DNA of 64,000 nucleotides from Bilabrum cf. latius (GCA_965178125.1 OZ237773.1:186001-250000), one strand, 5' to 3'. Counted from the stretch's first letter, positions 1 through 64,000 are shown. Numbers and translations are program-made. Notes: generated by a model from the letters alone, not told the origin.

Positions 1-3000
1 TCTGCAGAAGAGCAGAACCACCCGAACTGGGTATCCCGCTTCGTTCTGACGCGCTGCCGTGCCCGCTCTTAGTCTGCCCTGCAGTATTGGATGGCTGGCC
101 AGCAGACTGCTTCTTTCGGGCTGCTCGCTATGCCGACTGATCCGATCCCGAGTCACCAGAGGGCAGCAGCCCGGCGGCAATGGCCAGCTGCAAAGCTGCA
201 AGCGATGCCAGGGCGATGACCTGCCTCGCGCTTGGCTGCTCCATTAAGCTACCAAGGGCATGACCCCCACCATCAGAGCCGAGTCCCTCTGGCGATGCCG
301 TCGGTGACACGCCAGCAAGCGGAGATGCTGCCATGGGACTTGACGAGATTCCAGGCCCAGGTTCCCCGCTTGCAAGCACCTGCATGCAGTCGGCTAGCTG
401 TGCCAATACACTGCCGATCGACGGGACTGGGTGCCTGCTTGCGGCACACGCCGCGGTTCCGAGGCTCGTCCATGGCATGCGGGAGGCAAGGAGTGCTCGC
501 TGGAGACCGTGTGACGAGTGACTTGGGTCTACCATGGAGGGGCCGATCGCGTCTCCGCAGGCGCGCGCAAATGCAGCAGTCTCCAGAGAATTGAGTCCAG
601 CCCACGGGGCACCAGCTGCGCCGCCACTTTCAAGAAGTTTCTCAGGAGTATCGGCCGATGCACCGTGCCCGCTAGCACTGCCCGGCTACTTCGAATGGGC
701 AGCACCACCGCCACCTACTTGGTACCGTGCGGCCAGCAAAGTCCTGTGCACCATCGCGGCTTTCTCCTGGGCCACCCGGTGCGACGAGTGCCGCGGTCCA
801 CCGGTGGATCGATCCGATCCCTGCGACCTAGCGGATGACGAACGGCCCATGCCCGAGCTGCTGGCGATCGCTCCAGCCCCTGCAGCACCACGTCTGCCCC
901 TAGCGGCCGAAGCGCTGTCGCTGTCGCTCGGCATAGACACTGACAACGATGAAGACGATCTGCCCATCGGTCCATCAGCAAATCTGATGGGGGCGTCAGA
1001 CTCCATGTCATTGTTAAGGTCTAGCCCGTGGCATGCCTCTAAACCGTGCAGCAGCACAAGCGCTATGCATCTGGGAGCTCCCTAGGTCTGGGCCGGCACT
1101 GAGCTCTGCTTGTTGGGCTCGTACGGCTGCAGCGCAAGCACCTGCAGCTTTGCAGGCCGGCCATCCGAAGCATGCGATTGAACTGCACCAGAATCGGCTC
1201 TTTCCATAGAAATCTGTCCTGCTGCTGCCTGGTAAGATGCTTCGCGACTCTCCGTCGTTCCCACGCCGCCAGGCAGGGATGCCTTCTCGCCGGCTGACCC
1301 GAGGAATGCGGCCGATGGCAGCATAGGCGACTGGCTTGAGCTGCTGCTATCAGCAGCATTCTGCAGGAGCACGCCTGCAGTGCACTGCTGAGCAATATGG
1401 CTGGTCCCAACTGTGACGCAGGCGGACCGCAGCAGCTGGCTGAACGCCTCCCTTGCCGCTCGACCGGTCGCAGTCTGTTCCTCCCGGGCAGCCGCTGCCA
1501 GCTGCGACCGCAAGCCGCCTCCAGCAGCTCCTGACACAGAGCCGATACTTGATAAAGCGCTACGATAAGGCTGATTGTTACTGGAATTAGCCGCTGCGGC
1601 GCCGTCACCGCCCTCACCATCCGCAGTGCCAGCGCCCTCACGATCGGATCGCACCGGTGCGGCCAGAGACAGCACAACGTCCTGAAGGACTGAGTCGTGG
1701 ACTCGGAGCGATATATCCATCGCCGGTGGTAGCAGGGTCAGAGTGGCTCCAGCCGCGTGGACTGACGCATTCCGCTACCCATACCCAAGCCACTGCCGCT
1801 GCCGCTGCCGCTGCCAGGATGCCTGAAGGTGACTGGCACCAAGCCATGCATCCACTACCCGACGCATCGACAAACTGACCGCCTCCATCGAGTTGCGACC
1901 AATCTGCGTAGAAGCACCTGCTTGCTCGCCTTCGGGCTCCCCAGACTGTTCCAAAGTGGCGTGCACGGAAGCAGCGAGGGACTGCTCCTGGGACCGAAGC
2001 AGCCACATCCAGCAGCTCACGCCGACAGCGTCTCCTGCAGACAGGTGTACCGGCCTGATGGCATCCGCGCAGGCCTGCAGGGTACCAGCAATGGAGCATG
2101 CTACCGTGTGCAGCGCCATGCAATGCAACTGTCCGGCAGAAGCCGGCCCTAGCACAGTCACAGGGGCCTTTCGCTCCTGCTGCGACGACAGCGCCGATCC
2201 GCCTGCTCCCAGCAATCCACCAGTGGATCGTAGATGACCCGCAGCTCCACCCGGGCGAACCCCTGGACGAACGTTCCTTGCTCCGATCCCGAGGCCCCCG
2301 AGCTGCCTCCCGCTCGTCCCGCTGGATGATGATGCGGCCCCGATCCCCAAACCGGTCTTTCTGGCTCCGAGTCCTGCTGCAGAGGGCGCTGCAGGCGTTG
2401 TCGCTGCGGACGCACCGCCTTGACGCCTGCCTATACGCGATAAAGTACCGGACGCACGTGGATTTCCGGCCTTTCCATGCGATGCAGCTGGTCCCGATCG
2501 TGGGTGTGAGGCTTGGCGGGAGCCAGCTGTGCCTGCAGCACCCCCATGCGATGCACCCGCAGCCTTTCCAGACAGTTTCCCTGCGCCATGCGAGGCGGCC
2601 GATCTATGGCTATTCTCCATAGCCACTTCGCTCGTCACACTAAGCAGGCAGGCGGCAGCATCCACGGCGGACTCTTCTGCGACCAGCCTCGTCATCCCGC
2701 CAAATGCTCCGATCAATCGGACAGCCGCTGGCCTGGACAGACACATCGGGAGCACCACGTCCTAGAATACATCTGCGCTGCCGATCACTGGCGCCGTCAT
2801 TTGGGAGGACGCACCGGCTCTATGCTTGGCGGCATTCGCACTGCTGCCGCTGGCTGGTCTCGCCTGTGCAGATGCCCTCCTGAGATAGGCAGACAGGGAC
2901 ATGCACTGGCCTGATAGCACTGCCCTGAGCGCGGGAAACTGCGCAAAGTCGTGGGCCAGGGGTACGGTGCCACGTCCTCGATCCGATCCTTGATCCGATC

Positions 3001-6000
3001 CTTGATCCGATCCTGAGGAGGGGGCGTTGCTTGAAGCGGACCCGCTGGTTCCAATAGCACGTCGCTTGCCAACAACGCTGCACCGCAGCAAATTGAACAG
3101 AACCAGCTCCGGCTCAGACAGTACCGTTTCGGGTTGTGATACTGAGCGGGACAGCTGGGTACTGCCACCTGCAGCGCCTGCAGCTTCTTCATCGGACTTG
3201 CCCTACTTAACCTTCGATGCTCCATGCTCGACATTTCTACCGTCCTCACTCGTTACACCGCTGGCTCGCATTAGTGGTGACGTGTCCAGAAGCAGCGCGC
3301 CGATGCACGTCGCGGGGTCCAGCACCGCAATGCGATGCGCCTCCAAGATCAGCCGCCTGCACTGTCCCACCGGCGGCCAGTCGCTCGGGCAGAGACCGGC
3401 AGACTCGAGATCGGCGTCTGTCGGAGTTCCGGTTTGCGAGCCCGGCCCTGCCTGCGCCGAAGGTGACGAGCTCGCGCCAGAATTCGGACTCTTCCGACCC
3501 CCCACGCCCGCGCCCGCACTCGTCACACCGGTGCCGGGCTTGCCCCCCCTCTGCCTCTGCCTCTGTGCCCTGGCCCGCTGCTGGGACGCCTGCTGCCTCG
3601 CCGACTGTGCCCGACGAACCCTCTCTTCCGCTTGTTCCCTGAGCACCGCGAAGAGCCGCCGCAGAAAACCGGAACAGCGCTCCCTGATTTCCCGGCCTGC
3701 CACCAAGTTGAGCCGCCGCGCCGCATGCCGCACCGTGCCGCGCGCATCGAGGCTCCTGCACACCGCCTGATGCAGGGTCGCTGTTCCCTGGCCCATGCGG
3801 TCCAGCAGTTCCGGTTTGTGCAGAACATCTGATCCGATCATCGTCTTCAGCTGCTTAAGGGCCCAAGGGGCTGAGGCCCCGGCGGTGCTCGCATCCTCTG
3901 TGGATGCACTCGTCACACCTCCACTCGTCACACCGGCCACGATCGTGTGGTCCTCTTCGTCGCTCGAACTGGCCATGGCCCCCGACAAGCCGCCGGTGGT
4001 CAATCCAGCTCCACCGGTGGATTGAGCGCGACCGGGCGCGGCCCATCCGAGAGCGGCCCCCAAACCAGACGCCCCCGTCACACTCGTCACGCCGCCACTC
4101 GTCACAGCACCCCACACGCCGCGCGCCAGCACCGCTCCCGCTTGCTGTGCGCAGTCACCGGCGTGCTTCAGCAGCATGTACCGCAGCGAGTCGCACAGGA
4201 GGATGCTGGAGGCGACTCTGACGCGCAACCGGCGGCTGCCGGCGAGCCGGGCTGCAGCGGCAGCGACTTCTGCGTTCTGTTCGGCCACGTCAGGAGCGGC
4301 TGGCTGCGACTCGGAGTCCGAAATACCGATGGGTGGCTCGTCCGAAAACGATGCCGCACGGGTTTCTGCCGCGGTTGCAACCGACCTCAGGAGGGAAACC
4401 GGAAGTAGAGTATCCACCGTTGCCTCCGACGCTGCCACGAGCACATCCGCGAACTGTCCGGGATTATTCCCGGAAATGCACACGCGAAGCACTCTGGAGG
4501 CCATGCGAGCCCCGCTGCTGGCCAGCAGTTTCCGCGCCTCCCCCAGAGCCGACTGCTGCTCCGCCTTGATGCTCAGTCCCATCACCTCCCGAAGGACCCT
4601 TTTATCGCTCCGGGTCGTCGAGGGCTCAGACTGTCTTGCCTCAGACAGTCCTACGACCTTGCCGCCTTCACGTTCGCCGTGGTCCGCGCCGTTGGACATG
4701 CTCGGTTGCGCGGCGCTAGCGGCACTCGCGGAACCGTCGGCCGGCCCCACATGCTCACTGGACAGCGCGGTACTTGTAGCTGCGGAACCATTGCAACCAT
4801 GCGCGGCGCCGCGAGGTAACCCTGCCTACTGCTCCAGAGCCGCGTACAGCTCCAGCGCACTCGTCACACCACCCAACGCTCCCGCTCCCGCTCCGGATCC
4901 GCCGAGCGAAGAGAGGGCCGTGGACTGCGCCACCGGAGACGAGGACAGCGACGGCGATGGCGACGGCATGGCGGACTAGGACGAGGACGAGGACGAGGAC
5001 AAATGCGCACGGTCCGTGGTGCTGGCTACGCCAGCCAGACCGGAACCATGCTCCAGGGCGCCCACGGTACCATCATGCAATGCACCCATGCCGGCGCTGC
5101 CACCCGGCTCGCCTGCTCGTCGCCGGTTGGCAGAGACTAGCTCCCGAGCTACTGCTTGGAGCAACTGCCTGGCGGAAACCGACGGCTGCCCGGACTCATT
5201 CAGTGCCAGCTACATGATGGGACCAGCTGCAGCTCTGGCCACCCCGCAAGTGGCCAAACTAGCGAGCGTGAGTACCAATGGAGTGAGTCCGATCGTGCCA
5301 GGGCTCGGCAGCATCGCACTCGTCATACCGCTGATCTCCTCCGCGGTGCGCAGGGTGAGGGCATCATCTGAGCCGGCAAGGAGCAATTGCGCGGCGCTGG
5401 GAAAAACGGAACCGCTTTCCTCCGCATGCCGCCGGACCGTCGCGAGGATGGAATCCAAGTACATTTCCCGGAATGCTCGCCGAGCTTTCTGCAGCGCTGC
5501 CCGCGCCGCGGCTCTCGGCACACGCGGGTCATCCGTGCGGCGACCCGTCGACGCAGCGGAACCTCGATCCGCCTGCTGCGCGGCGCCGGCGGACTCGTTG
5601 GCTGCTTCCCGAGCCAGGTGCTGCAGCAGCACCAACACCGCGGCGTCTCCAGCGGCGCGCTCGTGGCTGCCGCGCGGCGCCCCCGGTTCCGCAAACGCGT
5701 CTTCCGGAATGGGCTCACGCGGTGAAATATCCGATTCAATCGGTGGATCGCTGCTGCTCGGCTAGTTCCGGTTTGATGTCCTCCTTCTCTTGGCCGGACG
5801 CGGGGCATCGCCACCTTGGCTGCCCCCATCTGAATCTCCATTCCCGCTTTCACTGCCATGGCTAGCGTCGTAGCTGCTGCTTCTGCTTTTCGCGCTGGCT
5901 TTCTTGCTTTTACTGGTACTGGGTGCTGCTGCTCGCCGGCGAGCGAGTGAGTCTGACCGGGCCGCCCGTGAGGACACCCGCTCCCCCCGAGCACTTGCTC

Positions 6001-6103
6001 TGGAGGCGAGCACCGCCATGTGCAGGTCGCTGTCCTTGTTCACGTCTTCGTCGCCATTGCCGTCCACATCTTCATCCCCACCATCATCATCATCATCATC
6101 ACC

Positions 6104-6135
<32 letters not shown>

Positions 6136-6733
6136 CATCACCACCATCACCATCACCATCATCATCGGTTTTGCTCGAAGCTCCCGCAGCCTGTTCACCC
6201 TCGGAGCCGGCATCTTGCTCGCTTCCACTGCTCACGACCACAATCCCGTCTTCATTTTCATCTTCATCTTCGTCTTCGATGGCGTCGGTTTCGCTCGCTG
6301 CGACGCTGCTGGACCGGGAGCCAGTCTTGGCAGGCGACGATGATGCTCGCTTTGAGCCCGAGGCAGACTTGGCACCACTGCCACTAACATCATTCGGCTC
6401 ATGTTGGTGCAAGTCGCGTTCAGGTTCATCTGACTCTGTCAAAGAACTTCGTGGTCGCTTGTTGCCGATCTAGTCTGGCTGCATTTTATCTCGATCGTTG
6501 TCGTCGGCTTCGTGCCCTCCCTCCAGGCGAGTGCTTGGCTTCGATGCGTCTTCTTCCCTTTCCGAGGATGACACGACGCCCCCACGCAACGCTAACCTAT
6601 GTTCAACAAGATCAGATAGATGTTTCCCGCGTTCATCCGCCACCCAGTGCCGTGGACCGGATGCGTCTGCAACAAAAGCGGCGATCACTGCCGCTGGAAT
6701 GGCGCACTCAGCTGCCTGCGAGATGGGCGACAT
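1..6733 (-). CDS. Giant low-complexity protein of unknown function (>2240 aa, runs off window start); acidic N-terminal region with poly-Asp
   Basis: ATG at 6733. Track ORFs 6470-6733, 5762-6442, 5210-5638, 4976-5164, 3203-4750, 2762-3091, 1775-2758, 1082-1720, 686-1057 and 128-535 are all in one frame. They are separated only by TAG (6470, 5762, 5210, 4976, 4826, 3203, 2762, 1775, 1082, 686, 128), with no in-frame TAA/TGA. Confidence 0.8.
6080..6166. repeat. (CAT/CAC)n trinucleotide tract encoding poly-Asp/Gly on the minus strand
   Basis: Visible run of catcatcat/caccat. Confidence 0.95.
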
Positions 6734-7271
6734 GTGCGCTGTACAATACTAGAAAGTGTACAAGTAGTATCGCTTTTACTTAATTTTCGACGATTCATTG
6801 ACTAACCTGCAAGGCGCGAGCGAGCCATTGCGCTGCTATCCTGGTCGTCGTCTGCATAGATCGCCCTTCAGAAAACGAAATAGCATTATCAGCAGGCCTA
6901 AGCTCGCAAATAAGGGCAAGAATAAGTTCCTTAGACACGCATTCCGGCATTTTGTGAAGAACGCCTTGCGATAGCTCAGATTGTTGCTGGCTAGTGAACG
7001 ATGCAGTTGCAGTCCCATCCCCGTACCGCTGACGGAACTCTGTACGAATCGATTCAACAGAAGGATCACACTACAGGAACTGGAGGAATTCACGAACATG
7101 TTTCTTGTGTGACATGGCCACCGACCATTCAAAAGGAGATGTGGGCCAAGCGCGGTTGGCAATGCATTAATGGCTCCGGAAAATGGACAGGCTCCTTTTC
7201 GATCATTGCTCCACACCTTGATGCGGTTTTGGTAAACTCTCCACAACGAATGGCTTGCACTCGTCTTCATC

Positions 7272-8444: not shown

Positions 8445-10057
8445 TCACTGCGTCGAGACGGGAGCATCCTCCTCCTCCGTCTTTCCGGGCGCACCCTGCC
8501 CCTTTACGACCGCGGGATCCAGGCAGGTCATGTTGCCGTCTTCGTACCAGCACACCGAGCCGCCCGCCGGCACAACGCGGCACCTCTGCGCCGACCGCAT
8601 GAGCGCCACCCCGATGGGCGTATCATCCTTCAGGTGGTACTTCTGGAACTCCTCCCAGCCGCTGAGGATCTCCGTCGCCTTTGTAGCGTGATAAAAAGGC
8701 ATGTCGGAGAACAAGTGGTGCACCACGTGAGAGTCGGCGATGTGGTGGAACGCGATGTCCCTGAGCCAGCCCCACGATCGGTCCACGGTCGCAAGGGCAC
8801 CCCTCAGGAAGGTGAACTCGCCCTCGTGCCAGTGGGGCACGTACGTGTCAGTGTGCTGCAGGTACGTGATCAGCGTCAGGTGCGCGTTGACCACGAGGTA
8901 GGGAACAAAGTAGTGCGCGCCCATGGCCAGAGGACCCACCCACACGGTCAGCAGCACCAGACCGGTTGCAACCGCCATGAACCACACCAGGCTCTCCCGC
9001 ACGAACGGCCGCTCTCCCTTGGTGAACAGCGCCGAACGTTCCTCGAAATGGCTGTTCCTCTTGCCGACGTATTTCTCCGGCCCCGCAGCGTTGATGGCGA
9101 GATAGGCGGGCCACCCCACCACGGCGATCTTGATCGTGTCGAGCAGCGCACCGAGGGGGCTCGTCGCGAAAGCCTCCTGCACCTTGTGGGAGGTGTGCCT
9201 CCACTGCAGCTGCTCCTGGGTCACCTACTGCTGGTCCTCGGGGGCGGTCTTGGATTCGGAGCCGGAATGCTCGCCCTCGTCCTTCTTCGCCTGGGCCGCA
9301 AGCTCCCCGATCGAGTCGTAGGCGGCCGGTACAAACACCTCGTCGTTCTCCATGCAATTGGTGTTTGCGTGGTGGTTGGCGTGTGAGATGCGCCATGGGT
9401 GGAAGGGGACGAGCAGCGCAGTGTGAAGCACATGGCCGACGAGGTAGTTGATCCAGTCCTGCTTGGCGAATGCGCGATGCCCGCACTCGTGAGCGACAAC
9501 CCACAGCCCAGTCATCACGCAGCCTTGAGCGTACCTGTGAGATGCATGGAAAGGGTGCGCAGGCAGGTGTGGATGGTGCGCCGGAGCAGCAGACTGACTG
9601 ACCTTAAAAGACATACATGCGAGGCAACGACAACTCAGATGCTTCAGAAGCAACAACGGCCTGATCGCCAATGAAGAAACATAACGCTTCTATGATTGTC
9701 TCAAACGAGCTCCGATAGAGTCATTTCATTGCATGGCTGTCCTCACCAGTATGTTGGCCAGGCCACCAGCTGCACTAGTCCCGGCAGCTCCTAAATTTGG
9801 AGACCGGCGTAAAGTAGTACAGCAACAAGAATAATATCACGAACCAAATAAACGAAAGACCAAAACAGGCTTGGCGTGAAAAGGTCTACTCCGTCGCTGT
9901 GGCTCTTGATGTAGTTGCGAACGTCGTTGATAGAAAACGGAGGTGGCTCCACACATTGCGGACTTGGCTACCCCGCGAGGCTCTTCTGCGGCTTGTTAAC
10001 TTGTTGAGGTGCCGCTTTGTTCCGAGATTGCGTAATTGACTTGCCTCCTTTGCCCAT
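8445..10057 (-). CDS. FAD2: Delta-12 (omega-6) fatty acid desaturase; exons 10057-9747 and 9534-8445
   Basis: N-terminus MGKGG...PPFSINDVR. Spliced WPTYW|YAQG with GT-AG intron 9746-9535. His boxes HECGH, HANHH and HVVHH. Three in-frame TAG (9968, 9791, 9225); stop TGA. Confidence 0.93.
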
Positions 10058-14461: not shown

Positions 14462-15485
14462 CCTGATAATGACTAGTGCCGATTGGCATTCAAGGCTTTG
14501 CCTGCATGCAGCCCCTTTGCTGTTTTCGACACTTCAGTTGAAAGTCCTCTTGAAGCCATCAGTCTCGGTCTGGGCATACGACGCACGGCTTAGACCCTGC
14601 TCACTGCGAGGCAGTGCAAGCATTCTGGGGCTTAAGCAAAGACGCTCGGCGATGCGGGCTGCTACGGGGCTTGCCGGCTGCGTCTGGTGCTAGAACCCCT
14701 CGCCGGTGACGACAAGGCGGAGTGGGTCACCCTGGACGTGGAAGGGCCACATCATGCGCGTGGTACCTTCCGAGTATCTTCAGCTCTGGCCCTACGCGAC
14801 CTGATCGACATGGTGGGTGCCGATATGGGCATGGTAGACCCGTGCAAGCTTGTCGAGAGCGGGCCGAAGCCCCGAGACCTGCAACCTAGCTCGGAGACTC
14901 TGGCCGAGGCAGGCCTCGCAGGACGTGGCACAAGCCAGCTCCAGCTGCGTGTTATGCCGCGTTAGCAAGTGCTACACATAGTTCCTCTAGGGGGCGGGAC
15001 AATCAACATTTATGATATGGATTGGTCGGACACCATAGAGTAGCTGAAGCAGAGGATCAAGGACAAGGCGGGCATCCCCGTGGAGCAGCAGCGCCTTATC
15101 TTCAGTGGAAGTTAGCTGGAGGAAAAAGCCGCACGCTGGCGGACTACAACATTCAACGGGAGAGCGTTATACACCTCATTGTTAGGCTGAGGGGCGGGAT
15201 GATGCACCCCTCTTCTTGTTGGGTTGGCCTGCGTGCAGACATCCGGGAGAAGTTCGCCATTCCTGAGAGCGGCACAAATGCATGGAACTGCCTACAAGCA
15301 CAATTGCGAAGGCGTGGCGGGCCCAGCTGGAGGACGAGCCTGTCTTTGCCAACGTCCAACTGCCTGGTAGGAAGGACCTGGTGCGGGTGGAAGTTGAGTC
15401 CGGTATGACGCTGGAGCAGCTGAGGGACGCGGCTGAGGAGATTGCGGCTGCAGAGGATAAAGAGGATGAGGCGGACGGGTTGTAA
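14462..15485 (+). pseudogene. Tandem ubiquitin-like domain protein, frameshifted (pseudogene or assembly indels)
   Basis: SDTIE[TAG][23 protein letters not shown][TAG]LEE, then a frameshift in the A5 run (~15123) into [24 protein letters not shown]. Upstream degenerate UBL motifs KTLGDAG and ETLAEAG. Second frameshift ~15270; in-frame TAA at 14633. 5' boundary uncertain. Confidence 0.7.
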
Positions 15486-19386: not shown

Positions 19387-20598
19387 ATGCTTCGGCCCAT
19401 GTGGGGGGCGGCTGCTTGTATTGCAATATTACTGTATAGTCAAGTGGGCGCTGCTACTCCTCGGCTTGGTGCGATTCGCTGGGATGCTTGGATCGGTCGG
19501 AACACAACGGTTGGTCTTGCGGTGACGGAGGAGCTGGATCCGTAGAGGTGGCACTACCGGCTGCCATTCTTTGGAGCTATAATCGGGCCCAATAACGTAA
19601 CAGTAAATGGATCGTCATCGGCTGTTATGCACCAAGAGCTGCAGTACGCTCGCCAGTTCGGTATCGATTGGTGGGCCTTCGTGACGTACCCATCCGACGA
19701 CCCCATGACAGGAATCTTGGACAACTACCTAAATATCAGCAATCCAGGCGTGAACATGGCTCTGATAGTCGAAGCTGGCCGACTCGGGACGGAAATCCCG
19801 ATCGATCGCATCATCTAGTACATGCGGCGTCCTAGGTACGAAGCCATTCAGGTAGATAATGGGAACCCGCGCCCAGTATTTATCATTTTGTCTCCAACAG
19901 AATCGCTCGCCCCGGTGGTGAAGCAACTGCGTGCTGCTGCGGCGGCAGCAAGCCTCGGAAACCCATACGTCGTTGTCATGTCTGGGCACGGCGTGGGCGC
20001 TCAGGAAAACATGCGGGTGCAGATCGGAGCCGATGGGCTGGGGCGGTACATGTACCTGAGCCAGCAATGGGCGGACAAACCGGGAACGGCGTTCCCATTC
20101 GCGTCAAACGCCGCGGGTGAGCAGGCGTACTGGAAGCAGGTGAGCGCGCTGGGCACTTGCTCGGGCGAGCATCATGCTCGGAGTGAGCACATCCGGAGTC
20201 ACGTGCCATGCGCTGGCTGTCGCCCATATGCACTGCAATCCAATGCATCCATCGGCAAGCTGCTCGCTCCGCTCACCGCGGGGTGGGACCCCAGGCCCAG
20301 GGAGATCCTGCCTGTTCCCTGGGGACAGTCCTTCCCCTCTGGTTGTAAGGGCGACACGCTCTGCTGGGTGGAGGACCCCACCATGCAGGAGCTGGCCAAG
20401 CAAGCGGCATCGGCCGCGTGCTTCCTTCGGTCGAACCCCGAGCAGCCGCAGGTCGCTCTGGTCTCTGCTTGGAACGAGATAGACGAGGGCCACTGGGTGT
20501 TGCCCAGCCTGGCACACGGCACGCAAAAACTCGAGGCGCTGCAGATGGGATTCAGGGCCAGTGACCCGTGCAGCATGGCATGGACGTATGGCACTTGA
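19387..20598 (+). CDS. Secreted glycoside hydrolase-like TIM-barrel protein (GH99/WbsX-like)
   Basis: Signal peptide MLRPMWGAAACIAILLYSQVGA. Motifs GAIRWDAW, WHYRLPFF, QELQYARQFGIDWWAF, GWDPRPR, SAWNEIDEGHW. TAG at 19543 and 19816; TGA. Possible in-frame intron near 20140. Confidence 0.75.
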
Positions 20599-23800: not shown

Positions 23801-24256
23801 CACAGCAAGTTTCGTGCTGTCCCGGCTCGGTGCTCCAGTTGCGCCATCGTGCCTTGAGACAGGTGCATTTCGACGAGCAATAATCGGTAAATCATGGTTG
23901 TGTCCTATGCCAGGCAGCTAAGAAATCCACAAATGCCATGGAGACGCCACCCCGCGCGATGCTTCGTGCAGCAGTAGCAGGGCGAGACGCACCGCTCGCG
24001 GCAAGCTGCTAAACTAAGCTTGCTAGGCCGCAACAGAGGCCTATTTTGTAAATCGTGGTTTCCAATCATCATGTGCCAGGCACACATCGAGTGGCACGCA
24101 GACAAGTGCGTCGGCATTTTCCAACGGAGTAGATGCCGACCTTGCAAACCAGCCCATTCCTCTGCCTGTAGTCTGAAACTGTCTTACTCCCAGCTCTTCT
24201 GCACTCCAAATCCCTACAGATTTCGCCCATTTCTAGAAACGCACCTGATCCGCCAT
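20807..24256 (-). CDS. SET-domain protein lysine methyltransferase (Rubisco LSMT/SETD3/4-like) with large low-complexity insertions (~1149 aa)
   Basis: ATG at 24256. Motifs TGRGMG, LALLLLHE..G..SPW, FAWAHGIVTSRA, ALVPWLGMLNHS, QVFIHYG....LAEEYGF. About 12 in-frame TAG; TGA at 20807. Confidence 0.85.
21557..21652. repeat. 48-bp tandem duplication (1 mismatch); each copy carries CACTCGTCACACC
   Basis: 21557-21604 versus 21605-21652. Confidence 0.95.
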
Positions 24257-24450
24257 TTGTGTTGACCGAGCAAGGCCACTCGAAGCAGTGCAGCAAATGC
24301 TTCGAGTGATGTTAGCTGTGATTCCCCTTTATCACCGTTAAACTTAATGAAACAAATCCAAACGCATTATGAACCTATCAATGAATGTTTTAGGCGGAAA
24401 AAACTCCACAATATTCTTTAGTCTGCAGAAGAATCACGATTCACTGTTTT

Positions 24451-37776: not shown

Positions 37777-37810
<34 letters not shown>

Positions 37811-45066: not shown

Positions 45067-47082
45067 TCATTTAGCGGGGTAGGAGAACTCCAGCGGTTGC
45101 CCCGCGTCCTTGAGCGCCTGCCGCAGCTCCTTCGCCCTCCCGTCCTCCCCAAGCACTTGCTCGGTGCTCGCCCACCCGTTGCTCACCATCAGCCCCGCAG
45201 CCACGCCGGCGGCCTGTCCCGTGCTCCACTCCTCGGGATGCAGCCTCGTGGCGGCGTTGGCCTTGTACGATTGCGCCATGCCTTTGCCCGCCACCATCGC
45301 ATTCGTCACACCGCCGATGGTCAGCGCCCGGTAGGGGATGTAGTAGGGCAGCACGGTGTGGTTCGCAATGTAGGGAGGAATGTTCGCTCCGCAGTCCACG
45401 GCGTGGATGTCGTCATTGTACTGACCGATCGCGATCGTGTCCTCAAACCGGAACCCCTTGCCGCCCTCGGAGGCGGGGGGTGCCACCGGTTGCAGCGGGG
45501 CTCCGCTGTCGTCACACCGGCCCGCGAGGTGGCACCACAGCAGCCGGAAATTATTTATTCCGGTCACCACCCGCCTGGAGCCCCGCAGATACGGAAACTT
45601 CACGAGGCCGGTCTACGTGCCCGGCATGTCCCTCCTCATCTGGAGGCGCCGCTGCTCGCTCGTCGTGTTCTGCGACAGGGCCCACCAGTAGGACCCGTAG
45701 GCCCGCTGTTCCGCGCCCCGGAGTGACGTCAGGTTGAATCCGCCGGCCCATGACCCGGACGATGCTTGTTCCCTGGTTGATCCGATCCCAAGGAACAGCT
45801 GCGCCGTGTCATAGTCGTTGCCTCCGGCCCAGTTCTGCTGCACGCTGTCGCCGGGGAACACGCTCGCAGGGGGGATCCATCCGAGGTGTGACGAGTGGTT
45901 CGTATCGTGTGACGAGTGCGATTTGGGACCCCCGTACACGTTCCGCCTGTACATCCAGATCTGCGCCCAGGTGAAGTTGTGTTGCCACGCGAAGGGTGGG
46001 TTTGCCTCGCTGGGCTTGAGCCCTTTCGGAGGCTACCACTCCCCCGGGCCCGGGTCGGGCTCGTTGCTCGCCAGGTACCTCATGAAGTACGTGATGGTGG
46101 CTGCCTGCCCGCACTGGTCCAAGTAGGCGCATGGGGGCTGCCCTGAGCCAGGGAGGCCGCACGTCTCGTCGGGTGTCTCGATGCCGAAGCTCCAGTCGAT
46201 CAGGGGAGTGCTTCTGGCAGACGGTGCATGACCATGCTTGGCTTTTCCGTTGCGGTGGTGGTCGCTTGCTCTGGGTGACGGGTTTTCACCGGCCATGGCA
46301 GCAGTTTGCTCGCTTTCCGAAGTGGCTTGCGGGGCTCGTTTGGATATACCCGATGGGGCAAATGTTCGGCTGCCTGCCAGTGGGACGTGCATGGCGCCAC
46401 CGAGAGCAAGCACGTCGCCAAGTTCGGTGGCTTCGATCAGCGCAGTGAAATTGCGGAAGGTGATCTGCCTCTTGGTGGCTAGCGAGCTGTTGCTCGGGCT
46501 GTACCAGTCCTCGAATTGCGACGAAAGAAGCTGACTCCACTGATTCGAAGCATTACGAGGCGTTCGCTGGATAGCATCCAGCTATGATATGCGATACTGC
46601 GAGCCGCTCTGAGCCCCGTTCGGTTCACCCGCAGCGATCTTGGTTGGTACGGTATTCCAGTACACTCGCAGGTGATCAGCGTGTCCCGCGATGTGCTGCT
46701 GAACAAAGCTTTCCTAAGCAATTACAGGATCGAAGCATAGGTCAGATACCCAACAGTGCCCGGGGTTTCCGAAGTCAAACAGCTCCCATAGATACTGGAA
46801 CGACGTTGGGAGATTGGATCTATGGCTCATGTAGCTGCCGAAATCGATTGCAGGAACACTATTTAGCTAGCCACCTGCCCAGTCGTACGGCTCGAGCAGA
46901 CATGCTGTAGTATTCCTCCCATCCGGGTGTGTTGGAAACCTCTGCCGGAAGAACTCGGCTGTTGCAAACGAGGTGGAGAGTGCGGCCAAGCTGCCACCGG
47001 CAATCACCACATCGCAATCTGTGACTATTTCGCTTGACGCTGTGGTTTGAAAGACAGCCAACAACACTAGAAATTGAGCCAT
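45067..47082 (-). CDS. Secreted FAD-dependent oxidoreductase (FAD_oxidored/PF12831-like, ~671 aa)
   Basis: Signal peptide. DVVIAGGSLAA, LLEPYDWAGG[Q]L..VPAIDFG, IEATELGD, PYYIPYRAL, NAMVAGK, RLHPEEWSTGQAAG. 5 TAG; TGA. Confidence 0.88.
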
Positions 47083-47533: not shown

Positions 47534-49424
47534 ATGCCTCGCCGTGGTGGAAAACGGGTACGTTTAGCTTCCCTCTGCTTTGCTTGGATACTATAGTTAT
47601 GCATGCATCCTTTTGGTTGCCACGTTCACGTCTCGTCGTTGTCGCAGAAGAAGGCAAGGACACACGTAGATGCCGACAAAGTCCAGCAGGCAGCAGCCGG
47701 CTCAGAGAAAATACCGCGAACGTTTGTTATCAAGCGCGGCAAAGTGAGAGCGACAGGCCCCGCACATTTTGCGAACCACCATGCCCGCTAGCAGCTGCAA
47801 CTGCTGTTCAATTCAGGCTTGAATGGTTCCTGACGGAAGCATCATGCATGCATTTCGCATATTTCATTGTTGAACAACGCAGGTAGAGCCCGTTGTGGGG
47901 TCAGTGGTGCAGAGCCTACGGCAGATGATGCTCCCGTACACGGCGCAGAAGCTCAAGGCCAGAAAGACAAACAAGCTCAAGGATTTCGTGTCTGTAGCAG
48001 GCCCCATGGGAGTCACGCACCTCATGATGCTCACTCAGAGCAGAGAAAAGGACCCGGATCAGCAGCAGCCACAGAAGAAAGCTCACTCACCCTCCCCGGG
48101 CGGCCAGGCCGTGCCCACATCAGCAGCCTCCTCCTCCTCCTCCTCCTCCTCCGCCTCCAGCGGAACCGGCGCCGCGGCGAGCAGCGAGGCCCCCGAAGAC
48201 CTCGACGACACTATGGGCGCCGGCGTGCAGCTGCGGATCGCCCGCTTGCCTAGGGGCCCAACGCTCACGTTCAGGCTGCAGAGGTTCAGCCTCCCCGCGG
48301 AAGTGCTCGCATAGCAGAAGAGGCCGGCGGTGCCTCCCAGCGCATTCGAGACCCCGCCCCTTGTGGTCCTAAATGGGTTTTAGGGTGTGCCTGCTGATAG
48401 CAAGCGAGCGTCTGGAGAGGACGACGGCGATGAGGACGAAGACGAGTAGGCGTCCAGTGCCCCGGGTACTCCCAAGCATCTTGCTCTCGCATCCACCGTG
48501 CTTAAGTCCATGTTTCCAGCCATCAACATCGCAACGGTGCGACTTGGTGACTGCAGGAGGGTCTGCCTCTTCCACAGGGACCCGGTGAGCGGGTGCATTG
48601 AACTGCGGCAGTTCGTGGTGGGGCTGCGGCCCGCCGGCATCAGCAGAGGGGTCAGGAAGGCGGTTGCAACCAGGAAGCTGAACCTCGGCGCCGCGCAGGA
48701 TATTGCGGAACTTGTGGAGCGCGGGTCCACCAGGGGACTGGCGGCCCGCTCCTCCTCCTCATCTTCATCTTCGTTATCTGCGTCGGGCACGGTGGAAGAC
48801 GGCTACGTGTCTGCTGGCACTGCATCGGATAGCGAATGGGAGGAGGACGAGAGCCACGGGAGGGTGGTGCTCCCCGAGGGGAGGGGCTCCACAGGGAACA
48901 AGGGCCTGGGGTTGGGCTAGTCAGCGGTTCGGCTGACGGAGGCGGGTCCCCGGCTGTCCCTGCAACTGCTCAAGATCGAGTCTGGGCTGTGCGAGGGCAC
49001 TGTTCTCTGGCACGCGCACGTGTCCCTGAGCGATGGCCAGGCGAAGAGGCAGAGGAGGGATCATGCGGAGAGGCAGGCCCTGAGGAAGGCGCGGAGGGAC
49101 GAGCAGGCCAGGAATGTGGAGAAGAAGGAGCAGAGGAAGAAGGAGAGGGAGGAGCAGCGGGCGGCCAAGAAGAGGAGGAGGGAGCAGGCGGCGGAGGCTG
49201 CGGCTGAGGCGGCCGGGGGAGATGGAGACGGGACCGAGGCGGATGACGAGGATGAAGATGAAGATGATGGGAGCAGCAGCGAGGGGAGTGACGTTGGTGA
49301 AGATGAAGACAGCAATGAGGGGGCTGGGAGCGGGGATGGAGGTGGTGGGGATACCGACAGCGGTGATGAAAAGGAGGAAGGTGATGAAGCGGTCGTTGGA
49401 ACCAAGCGGAAGCGAGGCCAGTGA
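47534..49424 (+). CDS. PPAN: Peter Pan / Ssf1 Brix-domain ribosome biogenesis protein; exons 47534-47557, 47648-47743, 47883-49424
   Basis: MMLPYTAQKLK..KTNKLKDFVSVAGPMGVTH, RLPRGPTLTF, PLVVLNGF, MFPAIN, [Q]SAVRLTEAGPRLSLQLLKIE. TAG at 48312, 48381, 48447 and 48918; TGA. Confidence 0.93.
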
Positions 49425-53289: not shown

Positions 53290-54953
<1,664 letters not shown>

Positions 54954-58006: not shown

Positions 58007-60120
58007 TCACACACCGTGCCCCGACAAGCGCCTGCTGCGCCGCAACCCAGAGGCAGGGCTCGCGGACCCCTTCCGGCCCCTTGAAGCACTCGTCACACCA
58101 CCGCCAGTGCGCTTGGCGGCCGATCGGGTCAGCGGCGGGCTCACCGCGCTGCCCAGGGGGGCGCGGACCTCGCTCGTCACACCACCTCGACTGGACCTTC
58201 GCTTCTGCGAGGACGAGGTCGAGGAGCTTCGGCGGAAACTGGAGGTGCCCGGCGCCGCGCCCATCTCGAACTGCCTGGTTCCGTCGTCGGCGCGACCGGC
58301 AGACCCCGCCCCGCTCGCAGGCCCTGACAAGGTTCCGCTGCTGCGCGGCGCCGCGGGCAGCACGCCCATGCCCTTGAGCGCCGATGCCACCTTGTTCTCC
58401 GACTTGGCCATGCCCTCCCGCAGCCTCAGGTGCCAGTCCTCCACAGCCACGAGGAGGCCCCTCAGCGACTCGTCCATCTCGGCGCACATGGCCTCGTGCT
58501 CCTGCCGGGCCGCCCGACGGGCGCCGCGCAGCTCCTCCAGCTGCGCGGCGCCGTCCTGCGCGTCTCTCCCCAGGGCCTGTGCCCGGTTCCGCAGTGTCTC
58601 AAGCTCGTCCCTCTGTGCTGCGAGCGCCCTGTCGCTTGCAGCCCGCTTCACCTCCGCGCTCGACCTGAACTCCCTGATCTTGGTCTCCATGCGCCGCTCC
58701 TGCCTCTGCACGTGTGACGAGTGCGTCTCGGCCTCGGTGCTCTCGGCTTTCAGCCGCTCCAGCTCCCCCACCCTCTCCCTCACCTCCTCCGCCGCCTCCT
58801 GCAGCCTCGCCAGCTCGGCCCTCGCCCTGCTCATGAGCCCCGAGGCCTCCTTGACCTCACCCTCGGCCCTCTGCACCACCTCTAGGCGGACGGAGGCCTC
58901 CCTCCTCGCCCTCTCGGCATCGTGCAATGCACCCTGGGCCTCCTCCAGCGCGCGGGAGGCCGCGTCCAGGCGAGCCCTCACCCCGTCCGCGTCCGCCACG
59001 ACACCCTCCCTCAGCTTGTCGGATTCCCCCTGTGCCGTCAGGGACCGGAACTGCGCGGCAGCCGTCCGGTCCTTGGCCTCCTGCTTTTTCTTCTTCTGCC
59101 CGTGCGTGTGCGCCCTGAGCTTGGCCTGGGTCGCGTTGAGCTCCTCGATTTCTGCCTCGAGGGCCCCGCACTCGCGCCTCACCGCGTCCAGCTCGGGTGC
59201 CTCTGACTCCCTAGCCGCCTTGGCCGCTGCCACCTGTCGGCGGAGCTCGTCCCGCTCTGCCTCCGCGGCGGCGTGTTCCTCCATGAGCTTGCTCTGCGGG
59301 AAGGGGTGTGACGAGTGGTATTGGTGGTGGGGGTGGGTCTCGCATGACCACATGTGCACGCGGCGCAATGGCCCGTCTCGTCTTGTCTCGGCCATGAGCT
59401 TGAGAAGGCAAGCAGCGCGCGCAGCATGCAAGACAGGTTTTACATTGCTCTTCCCCGAAATTGTGGTACTACAGCAAAGACACAGCTGACGATTACAGCA
59501 TTCGAGACACTATGGAGAATCCACTGCCTCACCGTGAGCTCGGAGAAACCCTGGTACTTCTTAAGGCGGTCTTCCCTGAACTTGTGAAAGTTAATAATAG
59601 CAGAAAGATTCCTCCGGACCCGCCTCGGGTCTGGTTTCGCGAGGTCCTTCAGCTAGAAGCCGTCGCGCACGCCCGCAGCCACAAGCAATTTGTCCCTGCG
59701 AAAACGGCAAGGGGAAGCTGGCATTACACCATGCCTTGGAGAACCCATATAATCATGCATTGCAATGTAACACAATCCTCACATGCCTCGGATAAAATGT
59801 AGAGCTGGGATACTTTCGTCGTGAAGCTCCTGGAACCGAAACGCCTCCAAGCCGTAAAATTTGGGCTGGGAGAGCTCATCCTTGCTCATGTCCAGACAAT
59901 CAACTAGCAAGGATTCATACACGTGCCTCAGCACGTCCGGCCGGCACTTCGTGAGGTCAGCCTCGGTAATGTGAATTCGAAGGTCCGAAAGGCAACTGAT
60001 GATCTCAGAGTTTTTCAGGATGGGGAAGGAGAAAGTCTCCTTTCGCTTTGTCATTGATCGTCCTCCAACACTAGCCCTCCCGGAAACACCGAACACGCTG
60101 CTTCCTGCCATCGCCGCCAT
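58007..60120 (-). CDS. NUF2: Kinetochore protein NUF2; exons ~60120-59783, 59695-59533, 59293-58007
   Basis: FSFPILKNSEIISCL, ELHDESI, GVRDGF[Q]LKDLAKPDPRRVRRNLSAIINFHKFRE, then a long coiled coil. Two GT-AG introns; TGA at 58007. Start could also be 60111 or 60054. Confidence 0.9.
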
Positions 60121-61036: not shown

Positions 61037-64000
61037 ATGCAGTACAACGACGAACCGCAGGGAATGTTCGGCGACGACGACGGAGCGGCCGGTGGCCGCC
61101 GCAACCGGCACCCGGGCGGCGGGCAGGCCGCCCCCCAGCACCGGGCCTTCGGGAACCAGGCGAGCGAGGAGCTGGGCAGCATCGAGGACGATGAGGACCT
61201 CATCAACGCAGAGGAGGGCGAGCTGGAAGGGGAGCGGCTCCTGGGAGACTTCGGGGAGGAGACATTCCTCTGGGCCAACGCGGACCCGTTCGAGCCTCAG
61301 GGTGCACTGCACGGTGATGTGCGGACCCTCCAGTTCCAGGACCCCGAGGACGAGGAGGCCTACCAGCGTTGGACCTTGGAGAGGTATGCCCCCCTGGTGC
61401 AGATGGCGACCGGGATGATGGCCGTGTTCGCGCTGGCGTCCGTGTTCTCTGGCGGGGCCGGGCCGCTTGCGGAACCGATCGTTGTGGCGGTGGCTGCGGT
61501 TGGCCGGATGGTGCCAGCCGTTGTGCTGGTGCTGCTGGCCTTCACTCGGGGGAACATCGGGGTGAGCTGTTCCGCGATGACGTGGCACTACGTCACCGCC
61601 TTCCTCGGTCTGATCATCGTGATGACGGTGCACTTGGAGGACATTTACTGCGGCGAGGTGGCGGACGTAGGGGACACACAGCTGGACCCGGCCCCCAGCG
61701 GGTGCAGGGCATTGGGGGGCGCGGGCAGGGCCACCGCGGGGGGGGGGTCCACCCCCGCCCTGGGGGCAATGCTGACGATCGTGCTCCCGTTCTGGCTGTT
61801 CTTTGGTCTCAAGACGGGGTGGATGCTGGGCGTGGCGGTCGGGGTGATTGCGACCGCCATGCAGGTGGGCATGGTCGCAAGGCTGGTGCGGCCGGAAGAG
61901 GCGTGGATGGTCCCCATGATGAGCGTCATAGCACTCGTCACAGCATCCATGGGCGCCTACCTCCACGAGAAAGCGGAGAGGAGCAGCTTGCGAGAGATGG
62001 TGCAGCACAGGAGGAGACTCCAGTCGGTGGCCGACGCGCGCCTCCCCGACCTTGTCAGGGAACAGCTGGGGGCACAGACCCACGACACGCACAAGCGGAT
62101 CCCAGTGGTGGTCGCAGAGTGCCCCGTGGACCGCAATATGTCCGTTGGGCCCATCACCTTCACATCACGGAGGGGCGCCAAGGACCTGTTCGGTCGTGAG
62201 GCAGACGACCTCATGCAGGCGAAGCTGACGGATGAAATCCTCTGCGCGCCCGACGACCGGGCAAGGCTCGACCACGAGCTGCGAACGTTCGTCGAGCAGC
62301 AGGTGAACCTCCTGATCGCGCCTCACCACGTGCAGGCAGGCGGGGGCATCCTCCGCACCTGCTTTCGGGTCAGGCGCCGGCTGAGGCACTCGACGCAGAG
62401 GGGCTTCGGTTTTGCGCTCATGGACGGCGATGCGCCTGGCCTGGCCATGGTGCCAGAGCTGTAGGTGCCCACCGGCAACGACGGTACCAACGCCCCCGCC
62501 TATGAGAGGGTGGAGATCCTGGGGCGGGACGGGCAGCCCCCCCGTGACCTAAACACGAGGGGCAGGAGCGTCAATGTGCCGGGGACGGCGGAGGTCAACG
62601 ACGCCGAACAAACCGGTTTCCTGTGGGTGGAGATGACGGCGCACCTGGTCGCAAGGCGAGGGAACACAGCGTTCTCTCTCCACTTCTCGCTTCGGGAGGC
62701 AGGCTCGGAGATATGCGGGTGGAGGCCCAAGCTCGGCATGGAGGTGGAGGACATCCGGAGGCGGTACGGGCTGGCCGACGGGCCGCATCTCGATGGGGGG
62801 GGCTCCACCCCCGGTGGGGGCAGGAAGGGGTCTTCGCTCACCTCGGGGGCGAGGGGTGTTGCGGGAGGTTCCTCAGGGGATCGAGCCTCAACCCGGAGCG
62901 GGGCCTCGGGAGCACCGGGGAAGGGTTCCGGTTCCGCAAGCGGCGCCGCGCAGAGCCAGGTCACCCGGGACCTGGAGGTTGCACGGCGCCGCGACGGAAC
63001 CACCGGCGGGCCTAGCAGGTACCACACCACGGACGGACACACGACCGCGCTCAGCTCACGCACCGCGAGCCTGGACGGCGGGACGGCGGCGGGCCCCGGC
63101 GGCGTCACCGCACTCGTCATACAGCCGGTACCCCTCGTGGATCCCGCCCACGACAAGGCACGAGCGGTTGCCAGCACCTTCGCGATCGCGTACACCCGCG
63201 CTGCGGTGGCCGCGGCCGAAGACTCCAGGGCTCGAGCCGCCGAGGCCATGGAGGAGGTTGCAACCGCGAGCGCGGAGATGGCCTGCTCCCTGGCCATGCT
63301 GCGAGAGGCCATGGAGGAGATCGATGGTGTGACGAGTGCGGGGGCGCGCCGCTCGGGGAACAAGCGCGACAAGACGGAGGTGATCATCCCCATCCCCCCC
63401 TCCTCCTCCTCGTCTTCCTCGGGCGGGCGGGCTTCCGCTCTGATCGAGAGCGACGCGGGGGATTCGTCCGAGTCCAGCGGAACCGTTCCCAGCGGCGCCG
63501 CGCAGGGGCTAGGCACGCGCAGGAAGCTCGAGTCGAGCACGGTGCCGGTGCAAAGGGGCAAGCTCGGGGCCGGTCGCAGGGGCCAGCAGAGGTCGTCTGC
63601 GTCTGCCAGCGGGTACACCGTGGGCAGCACGGCGGGGACCGGGCCCGGGTGGATCGTCCCGGGGGGAGGGTCCTCGGCTGCGGCTCGGCTGGCCGCCGCT
63701 GCGGACCAGGCTAGCCTGCGGAACCTCAGCTGGGCGCGCGGCGCCTACTGGGGGGTGCCCCTGGGGGGCGCCTCGGGGGGTCCCAAGTGGGACGGGGACA
63801 GGAGGCCCGAATGGAAGCGCCAGCGAACGTTCGCTCTGGGGTTGCTCGAGCCCTCGGAGTCCCCGAGCTGGGACTACGAAGACCCCACAGCGGGGGAGGG
63901 TACCCCGGGGGATGGCCTACAGGGGTCTGGAGGGGACGGGGCGCGGCCAAAGGTCGAGGTGGCGCTCGGGGGGATCGGATCTGCAAGCGAACGGAGCGGT
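61037..64000 (+). CDS. Multi-pass membrane protein with a PAS/PAC-like cytoplasmic region (runs off window end)
   Basis: ~6 TM helices, then ITFTSR..AKDLFG...DL......CAPDDR and FLWVEMTAHL. TAG at 62462 is read through and the frame stays open to the window end. Confidence 0.7.

Follow-up and report, generated by a model that had tools for sequence, protein, structure and literature searches.

How are the many in-frame TAG triplets of this locus read? The window (the whole 64-kb stretch of DNA that was analyzed) is contiguous, has a GC content of 60%, and carries about 20 genes, some of more than 2000 codons, with sparse, canonical GT-AG introns of 87–281 nt whose edges are GTGAG..CAG. We conclude with considerable confidence that it belongs to a nuclear, GC-rich eukaryotic genome in which UAG specifies an amino acid, most probably Gln, UGA is the usual stop, and UAA never occurs within genes and appears to end a few of them. 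The code in effect would be NCBI table 15, a known variant, of a rare kind, in which only UAG is read as Gln, and we regard this reading as a whole as very likely correct. An initial annotation of the same DNA had proposed that UAG is read as Gln and UAA is not reassigned, and that central reading survived every test run, with Gln as the likeliest amino acid; the evidence it offered for Gln is thinner than it claimed.

TAG Is Open within Long and Conserved Reading Frames

With TAG taken as sense, the longest ORFs in the 64-kb window come to 2409, 2258, 1278, 1173, and 1167 aa; the longest under the standard code has 685 aa. Freeing TAA alone brings no gain (the top ORF stays at 685 aa), and freeing TGA alone raises the maximum to just 797 aa, though TGA is the commoner triplet. 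Across 21 ORF segments (16,659 codons) we counted 94 in-frame TAGs, close to the roughly 90 counted earlier by hand, and not one in-frame TAA or TGA. The two other frames of the same segments contain 121 and 126 TAGs, 50 and 61 TAAs, and 284 and 361 TGAs. The gain in ORF length with TAG as sense is far beyond chance, and TAG makes up about 13% of the putative Gln codons. It is found in several very long ORFs:

2..6775, minus strand: 2258-codon ORF with 12 in-frame TAGs, running off the window, without a Pfam family
32062..39288, plus strand: 2409-codon ORF carrying 19 TAGs in frame, with TAA next at 39289-39291, without a Pfam family
20810..24328, minus strand: 1173-codon ORF with 12 in-frame TAGs, ending at TGA

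TAG is also present in conserved genes that are otherwise intact, and the gene identities given in the initial annotation are borne out by Pfam (FAD_oxidored, Brix/PPAN, ArfGap, ubiquitin, FA_desaturase, and Nuf2):

45070..47082, minus strand: FAD-dependent oxidoreductase coding sequence (Pfam PF12831, E = 1.4e-24; 67 homologues), ending at TGA, with TAGs at 46867, 46714, 46582, 46033, and 45613
14636..15187, plus strand: ubiquitin-like ORF (Pfam ubiquitin, E = 2.1e-12) with TAGs at 14963, 15041, and 15113
47883..49421, plus strand: main exon of PPAN/SSF1 (Pfam Brix; PDB alignments to SSF1/PPAN) with TAGs at 48312, 48381, 48447, and 48918
53293..54792, minus strand: main exon of an ArfGAP (Pfam ArfGap) with TAGs at 54760, in the zinc-finger motif NPxW, and 53803
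58010..59694, minus strand: NUF2 (Pfam Nuf2_DHR10-like; splice joints), exons 58010-59293 and 59533-59694, intron 59294-59532
8448..9527, minus strand: delta-12 (FAD2-type) desaturase (Pfam FA_desaturase) with a TAG at 9225

The spliced NUF2 ORF has a single TAG, at 59653 in exon 2, within the N-terminal domain and opposite Asn of the yeast protein in a PDB Nuf2 alignment; a further TAG, at 59510, is intronic. In the desaturase, alignment places TAG 9225 in the stretch that separates His boxes two and three, within a lineage-specific insertion, and a public gene call (P0068) begins right after it.

TAG Is Retained in Genomic DNA and in Spliced RNA

We compared the window with assembled contigs over positions 41000-60999, using a DNA run (X2) and three RNA runs (X6, X7, and X8). 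The contigs of the RNA runs skip seven GT..AG introns, none of which is skipped by any joint in X2. The joint across the intron upstream of the PPAN exon (47744-47882) is present in all three RNA runs, and both the joint across the ArfGAP intron (54793-54905) and its exon are covered by RNA contigs.

Within this interval 29 of 31 in-frame TAGs lie on RNA contig pieces, with at least two runs covering 16 of these TAGs, and at none of the 29 is another letter found; all five TAGs of the FAD oxidoreductase are among those covered. The DNA contigs likewise have no other letter at the TAGs, and no contig aligned over 41000-60999 has an insertion or deletion relative to the window. As contigs can lose rare variants, this agreement of RNA and DNA holds at the contig level. 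The mRNA check proposed in the initial annotation thus came out in its favor, with TAGs kept unedited in spliced message, and none of the escapes it had listed (editing, micro-introns, or basecalling errors) is seen over these positions.

Which Amino Acid Does UAG Specify?

Four TAGs had been put forward as conserved Gln sites (46867, 15113, 48918, and 54760). All four are correctly placed and in frame, but only two of them held as such. One lies in the FAD oxidoreductase:

46867..46869, minus strand: TAG in the DWxGGQ motif at an invariant Gln (all 62 aligned homologues have Q; five more are gapped)

The other is 15113, which falls opposite Gln49 of ubiquitin, in an alignment that puts 15041 opposite Asn25. 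The claim is weaker for PPAN 48918, where 103 homologues have K 69 times, Q 24, R 3, other residues 6 (Ser once), and a gap once, and for ArfGAP 54760, where PDB alignments show Q for ArfGAP1 but S for both ArfGAP2 and ArfGAP3. Small residues prevail at three further TAGs. In PPAN the homologues have Ser 56 times, Leu 26, and Gln once at 48312, and Gly 54 times, Ser 25, and Gln once at 48381; in the FAD oxidoreductase they have Ser 25 times, Ala 18, and Gln 6 at 46582. Summed over nine alignable TAG columns from three families, the profile log-odds are -0.08 for Ser, -2.27 for Gln, -4.5 for Ala, -7.05 for Lys, -11.2 for Leu, and -13.4 for Glu, and four of the nine columns have a Q-versus-S score under the 10th percentile of the scores at true Gln sites. 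Judged from these alignments, family profiles by themselves do not tell Gln from Ser, with Ser slightly ahead. Nor did the reported clustering of TAG with CAG and CAA stand up: Gln occupies 16 of 375 positions within two residues of a TAG, or 1.11 times background (p = 0.37).

A comparison of orthologues bears more directly on codon identity:

19387..20595, plus strand: gene of a WbsX-like glycosyltransferase family (Pfam PF14307, weak; 1136 library matches) with TAGs at 19543 and 19816

Its orthologue on a metagenome contig of 53% GC (L001) shares 249 of 402 residues (62%) with it and has five in-frame TAGs and no TAA in 432 codons. That gene is open with TAGs of its own at positions other than those of the window gene, and three of them lie about 75 codons before a TGA end common to both orthologues. 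The seven codons paired with a TAG in the alignment are CAG, CAG, and CAA (Gln), GAA and GAG (Glu), AAG (Lys), and GGC (Gly). The log-likelihood of such a set of partners is -14.85 for Gln, -17.0 for Glu, -21.2 for Lys, and -22.9 for Ser, and the comparison, as aligned, favors Gln over the other three. Two copies of the gene at about 90% (P0292 and P0443) end exactly at window CAG 20062, which we counted for Gln. TAG columns aligning mainly to another residue had been named as a refutation of Gln, and on the combined evidence (the invariant Q column, ubiquitin Gln49, and the orthologue partners) the outcome is Gln; the profile columns alone lean slightly to Ser.

The chief competitor is a reading in which UAG is decoded as Ser by a tRNA-Ser with a CUA anticodon, as reported for the green alga Scotinosphaera (cited in PMC11687900). 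Besides its first place in the nine-column sum, it draws support from Ser being the commonest residue at PPAN 48312, FAD oxidoreductase 46582, and WbsX-like 19816, where both 90% copies also have Ser, from the Ser of ArfGAP2 and ArfGAP3 at 54760, and from a frequency of Ser just before TAG (position -1) of 17% against a background of 10.6%. Just after TAG (position +1), however, Ser is depleted (3.2%), and the 62 Gln residues of the invariant column, the single Ser among 103 at PPAN 48918, and the position of 15113 opposite Gln49 all speak against it. So do the orthologue partners: none of the seven is Ser, though true Ser sites are self-conserved at 44%, and three are Gln, as compared with 5% of Ser partners. 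We therefore consider a Ser assignment improbable.

UGA and, Apparently, UAA as Terminators

TGA is clearly a terminator: it follows 16-17 of 20 ORFs. TAA follows one to three of the 20, and it is on those ORF ends that its apparent role as a terminator rests. The case that argues most strongly for it is a spliced and transcribed ORF:

42108..43034, minus strand: ORF with four in-frame TAGs, ending at TAA (42108-42110)

RNA contig pieces cover 42069-43034 and 42122-43034, with a joint 43034>43130; the contig ends 39 nt past the TAA, beyond which no in-frame stop-like codon occurs for 150 nt. The 2409-codon ORF ends in CCA TAG GAT TAA, its last TAG preceding the TAA by two codons, and its TAA is followed by GGTAAGT, a possible splice donor. 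That UAA is not a sense codon, as the initial annotation had it, is upheld by its absence from 16,659 codons, by the lack of any ORF gain when it is freed, and by its absence from the L001 orthologue.

These observations bear on the remaining alternatives. UAG and UAA might both encode Gln, as in NCBI table 6, with UAA rare simply owing to the high GC content. Among nuclear variants UAR = Gln is the most common (PMC5304391 and PMC11687900), and the preponderance of TGA at ORF ends is what a sole stop would give. However, if TAA:TAG tracked CAA:CAG (171:464) about 35 in-frame TAAs would be expected, and none is seen, though the off-frame counts are 50 and 61; other NNA:NNG ratios range from 0.15 to 0.86. 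Freeing TAA as well as TAG adds just short extensions at ORF ends, the spliced ORF at 42108..43034 stops at TAA with its RNA contig ending 39 nt on, and the orthologue has five TAGs to no TAA. We judge this possibility to be very unlikely. Equally slight is the chance that the meaning of UAG depends on context, being sense within genes but a signal to terminate close to some 3' ends, as in Condylostoma or karyorelicts, or that it encodes Glu or Lys. The TAG near the end of the 2409-codon ORF might be a real stop, but no ORF needs TAG as a terminator, and homology passes through TAGs to TGA wherever the C-terminus could be checked (WbsX-like, PPAN, and FAD oxidoreductase). Glu and Lys both appear among the orthologue partners, and Glu is second in likelihood there (-17.0 versus -14.85); in the profile columns they score -13.4 and -7.05, as against -2.27 for Gln. 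Finally, an unchanged code, with sequencing or assembly errors, pseudogene lesions, RNA editing, or micro-introns accounting for the TAGs, has a negligible probability and, at the contig level, is refuted; nothing speaks in its favor. Two studies supply five runs that are likely DNA (kind unrecorded) and contain 99-100% of the sampled words, DNA and RNA contigs agree at the TAGs without indels, ORFs extend to 2409 codons free of TAA and TGA, and a relative at 62% identity keeps its gene open with TAGs elsewhere.

Mechanism and Relation to Known Codes

Decoding of UAG as Gln would proceed via a predicted tRNA-Gln with the anticodon CUA, which pairs with UAG and not with UAA; UAA may thus have escaped reassignment because this anticodon would not read it. 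The release factor eRF1 would also have to recognize UAG less well, and decoding would have to be efficient because single ORFs contain up to 19 TAGs. Neither a tRNA gene nor eRF1 occurs in the 64-kb window, and L001-L003 likewise have no tRNA genes. The host probably represents a new, non-ciliate lineage. We further think it somewhat better than an even bet that it marks an independent, unreported origin of UAG-only reassignment to Gln, in a GC-rich, aerobic, non-ciliate clade that has at least two diverged members (the host and the source of L001) and uses UGA as its main stop. If so, the clade would offer a tractable system for learning how eRF1 loses UAG yet keeps UAA, a question for which its public genome and transcriptome data could be used.

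UAG alone has been reassigned to Leu in the rhizarian exLh. In exLh and Scotinosphaera, as here, the nuclear code separates UAG from UAA; an exLh-like Leu scores -11.2 on our TAG columns, and Ser, as in Scotinosphaera, is the runner-up, contradicted by the orthologue partners and the invariant Gln column. Both UAG and UAA are read as Gln (NCBI table 6) in ulvophyte green algae, Hexamita, Streblomastix, and Amoeboaphelidium protococcarum, and oxymonads and hexamitids are also named among such lineages. These codes resemble the present one in the change of UAG from stop to Gln in a non-ciliate nuclear genome but differ in that UAA is sense. Among ciliates, macronuclear DNA is AT-rich, and phyllopharyngean chromosomes are gene-sized; the window, with its 60% GC, contiguous 64 kb, long genes, and GTGAG..CAG introns of 87–281 nt, is unlike either. 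Amoeboaphelidium itself was considered as host and ruled out by its GC content (40.5% and 39.9% for its genomes, PMC10608142 Table 1, versus 60%).

The same codon table, with UAA and UGA as stops, is used by Protocruzia tuzeti and two phyllopharyngean lineages, in which only UAG is read as Gln according to McGowan et al. (2024; PMC11687900). In the fornicate Iotanema spirale, too, UAG is read as Gln and UAA still terminates (Panek et al. 2017, PMC5304391, the source also for what follows on Iotanema). As here, the reassignment is confined to UAG, and the predicted decoder is a tRNA whose CUA anticodon reads UAG only; changes in eRF1 domain 1 are expected, Iotanema has T32G, and an altered domain 1 would be anticipated in the host. 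The two differ in that UAA is the dominant stop in Iotanema and TGA (16-17 of 20) in the host, and in that the Iotanema evidence is from the transcriptome only, whereas here contigs from genomic DNA and from spliced RNA concur. The host carries a gene for a delta-12 desaturase, an O2-dependent enzyme, which would be more in keeping with an aerobe than with an anaerobic fornicate. The one hint bearing on the stramenopile-like flagellate considered in the initial annotation is that the best named matches of this enzyme are from oomycetes and ochrophytes, at 40-45% identity.

Gene Content and Nuclear Origin of the Window

The window has a GC content of 60% over its 64 kb and is tightly packed with long open reading frames (ORFs) on both strands. 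The features recognized in it were as follows.

Features of the window (coordinates, strand, identity; from Pfam unless stated otherwise)
8448–9527, −, delta-12-type fatty-acid desaturase (FAD2)
14636–15187, +, ubiquitin-like domain
19387–20595, +, WbsX-like gene
26160–29993, +, protein kinase with armadillo repeats
43558–44244, −, aquaporin
45070–47082, −, FAD-dependent oxidoreductase
47202–47320, +, 5S rRNA gene, flanked by protein genes (Rfam, 81 bits)
47883–49421, +, PPAN/SSF1 (Brix)
53293–54792, −, ArfGAP
58010–59694, −, NUF2

Seven introns of 87–281 nt, with boundaries mostly of the form GTGAG...CAG, are spliced out in contigs of three runs. Given these introns, the gene set and the 5S rRNA gene, we conclude that the window is eukaryotic nuclear DNA. 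The 5S rRNA gene was the sole Rfam match, no 18S rRNA being found in the window by this means, and no tRNA genes were found in the window or in L001–L003 (L001 being the metagenome contig described below). In sequence searches, neither the 1173-codon nor the 868-codon ORF had a match in the PDB. The depth of the DNA-run contig is 1134 at the 5S rRNA gene as against about 35 in its flanks, which suggests that the gene is present in roughly 30 copies, dispersed or in tandem. At 49539–53023 (+), long ORFs of 825 and 453 codons, containing seven and six TAGs, respectively, lie in different frames and overlap at 51665–52013; a single RNA contig spans 49587–52726 without a gap, and the region holds either two neighboring genes or an unresolved frame change.

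TAG Is an In-Frame Sense Codon

With the standard code, no ORF in the window exceeds 685 amino acids. Freeing TAG alone from its role as a stop gave longest ORFs of 2409, 2258, 1278, 1173, 1167, and 1037 amino acids, whereas freeing TAA alone left the longest ORF at 685 amino acids and freeing TGA alone raised it to just 797, even though TGA is twice as frequent as TAG. We also counted codons in 21 ORF segments, whose frames were picked for length or Pfam support. Their coding frame (16,659 codons) contains 94 TAG codons and no TAA or TGA codons. In their two off-frames, by comparison, TAGs number 121 and 126, TAAs 50 and 61, and TGAs 284 and 361. Thus, TAG acts as an ordinary triplet in the coding frame, from which TAA and TGA are excluded. 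The presence of in-frame TAGs is genuine and highly significant, and the four TAGs for which the initial annotation had given coordinates (15113, 46867, 48918, and 54760) all lie in frame.

The TAGs Are Found in DNA and in Spliced mRNA

Sampled words of the region 44900–49500 were 99–100% present in five runs of two studies, which are likely to be DNA, the kind of run not being on record. We also compared the region 41000–60999 with contigs of a DNA sequencing run (X2) and of three runs (X6, X7, and X8) that were taken by guess as RNA and that came from two studies other than those of the DNA runs. Joints in the X6–X8 contigs drop seven GT..AG (or CT..AC) introns and X2 has no such joints, indicating that the X6–X8 contigs derive from spliced RNA. 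No letter was omitted or inserted in any contig aligned with the region, and differing letters were confined to 41042–41562, where there is no in-frame TAG. At least 29 of the 31 in-frame TAGs in the region lie on RNA pieces that show no other letter, and at least 16 of these recur across two or more runs; the TAGs at 52733 and 52757 fall outside the RNA pieces among those listed. This agreement, seen in contigs, which may lose rare variants such as low-level editing, indicates that the TAGs are present both in the genome and, unaltered by editing or micro-introns, in mature mRNA.

TGA Is the Main Stop Codon

If TAA were likewise read as glutamine, about 35 in-frame TAAs would be expected from the CAA:CAG ratio of 171:464, and none was found; TAA is not a sense codon. 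The stops at 20 ORF ends are TGA in 16–17 cases and TAA in 2–3. TGA is therefore the main stop, and the dominant terminator is UGA rather than UAA. TAA is probably still a stop. Its strongest case is the ORF at 42111–43034 (−), which is transcribed and spliced and whose RNA contig stops 39 nt beyond the TAA, the next 150 nt being free of any stop-like codon. For the 2409-codon ORF, GGTAAGT follows the TAA at its end, and an unrecognized intron may therefore lie there. The flanks of the TAA stops showed no clear drop in GC content.

UAG Very Probably Encodes Glutamine

To assign a residue to UAG we turned to homologues; the queries that collected them had X in place of TAG in three families and, for the WbsX-like gene, were translated under NCBI table 15 (UAG as glutamine only). 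Part of the earlier claim that TAGs occupy conserved glutamine sites was borne out: the TAG at 46867 in the FAD oxidoreductase gene falls in an invariant column (Q in 62 of 62 aligned sequences; 67 homologues, five with gaps), and that at 15113 lies opposite Gln49 of ubiquitin. The column of PPAN 48918, however, is mostly lysine (K 69, Q 24, R 3, and S 1 among 103 homologues), and that of ArfGAP 54760 is Q in ArfGAP1 but S in ArfGAP2 and ArfGAP3. The other aligned sites in the FAD oxidoreductase are variable (L 42/V 12; S 25/A 18/Q 6; G 20/A 10/R 7). Two further PPAN columns (103 homologues) read S 56, L 26, A 7, and Q 1 at 48312 and G 54, S 25, A 8, and Q 1 at 48381; the TAG at 15041 is opposite Asn25 of ubiquitin; and two WbsX-like columns (150 representatives) are highly variable (N 29, E 25, S 20, and Q 7 at 19543; S 22, G 18, A 15, and Q 5 at 19816). 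The TAGs of FAD2, inside a lineage-specific insertion, and of NUF2, opposite an asparagine of yeast Nuf2, are uninformative. Profile log-odds summed over nine well-occupied TAG columns were −0.08 for S, −2.27 for Q, −4.5 for A, −7.05 for K, and −13.4 for E, and four of the nine columns were un-Gln-like when calibrated on true glutamine sites in the same proteins. Thus, family profiles by themselves cannot separate glutamine from serine. Nor does the context of the codon help: TAG had been described as often adjoining CAG or CAA, yet glutamine within two residues of TAG is at 1.11 times background (p = 0.37). Serine is enriched at position −1, and at position +1 glutamine is enriched and serine depleted, so that clustering of the two residues around TAG is nonsignificant or contradictory.

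An exhaustive library search of the WbsX-like gene returned short fragments from close relatives, two of which, from a single relative, pointed to L001, a metagenome contig with 53% GC. Its WbsX-like orthologue is one open frame that is identical to the window gene at 249 of 402 positions and likewise ends at TGA, and it has five in-frame TAGs at positions other than those of the window gene. The code is thus common to this diverged relative. The two window TAGs are opposite CAG(Q) and GGC(G) in L001, and the five L001 TAGs are opposite GAA(E), CAG(Q), GAG(E), AAG(K), and CAA(Q) in the window. Against the partner distributions that this alignment yields for every real amino acid, these seven partners gave log-likelihoods of −14.85 for Q, the best, −17.0 for E, −21.2 for K, and −22.9 for S.

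Serine, the minor rival, is the residue that leads the summed profiles, and it stands opposite the TAG at 19816 in both P0292 and P0443, proteins that are ~90% copies of the WbsX-like gene; the orthologue partners, on the other hand, speak for glutamine over serine. Both copies also terminate exactly at the window CAG at 20062, which roughly offsets their serine at 19816. When the profile and orthologue terms are combined, glutamine is ahead of serine by ~6 nats and of glutamate by ~13 nats, and Gln49 of ubiquitin adds further to its lead. We therefore consider it very probable, from these comparisons, that UAG encodes glutamine; serine is improbable, and any other residue is still less likely. 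The proposal of the initial annotation, UAG as glutamine with UAA unreassigned, is thereby supported by different and stronger evidence than was first offered, although the choice of residue is less settled than had been written. As for the ~89–90% copies, which include a second X2 contig over 41000–41207 (~89% identical, 22 of 208 letters differing), they represent either a second haplotype that has diverged, or a homeologue, or a sister strain.

Decoding, Lineage, and Known Codes

Single ORFs contain up to 19 TAGs, which argues for efficient decoding rather than leaky read-through. With CUA as its anticodon, a tRNA-Gln would read UAG but, owing to a C:A mismatch, not UAA, an argument made for Iotanema in PMC5304391. 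The release factor eRF1 would have lost efficient recognition of UAG while keeping that of UAA and UGA; the Iotanema factor has T32G in the GTS motif.

In its GC content, the length of its genes, and its introns, the window differs from ciliate macronuclear DNA as generally characterized. The best named matches of FAD2 are oomycetes and ochrophytes (40–45% identity), and PPAN matches carried no lineage signal. Amoeboaphelidium, brought to mind by the divergent copies and the algal-metagenome runs, was excluded, its genomes being 40.5% and 39.9% GC (PMC10608142, Table 1) as against 60%. PMC11687900 lists UAG-only reassignment to glutamine in Iotanema spirale, Protocruzia tuzeti, and two phyllopharyngean lineages, to leucine in a rhizarian and phyllopharyngean ciliates, and, as cited there, to serine in Scotinosphaera; it lists UAR as glutamine in ulvophytes, Hexamita, Streblomastix, and Amoeboaphelidium. 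The code variant itself is already known, and the host lineage is probably new. A literature search of main texts, in which few subscription journals were represented, found no report of UAG as glutamine in a GC-rich non-ciliate. Nuclear uncoupling of UAG from UAA is known in few lineages only, according to PMC11687900, and a further GC-rich non-ciliate case would be an independent data point on the co-evolution of eRF1 and CUA-anticodon tRNA.

Standard-code annotation, phylogenomics, or proteomics on these data will go wrong. Four public calls (P0068, P0442, P0295, and P0312) made on a contig of 20,179 bp from this organism (window 8448–20595) begin or end at TAG codons, and the public FAD2 call is without the first two His boxes.

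A Repeated 10-mer

Finally, we note that the 10-mer GTGACGAGTG (consensus GGTGTGACGAGTGC) occurs at 31 sites in the window as against 0.15 expected (for example, at 3517, 3907, 3922, 4858, 12307, 21445, 33562, 37330, 45888, 45909, 53637, 58087, and 63329). It lies within long ORFs at 29 of the 31 sites, 18 sense and 11 antisense, and 14 sites share one phase, giving the peptide GVTS. Its flanks are not conserved, and L001 has no copy. In the FAD oxidoreductase gene, two copies, both antisense, fall in an insertion that 15 homologues lack. The 1173-codon ORF has a 48-nt tandem duplication at 21585–21642 (−), in which the peptide E-[TAG]-GCDECALPDRAGHC recurs; a TAG and the 10-mer motif are present in each copy.
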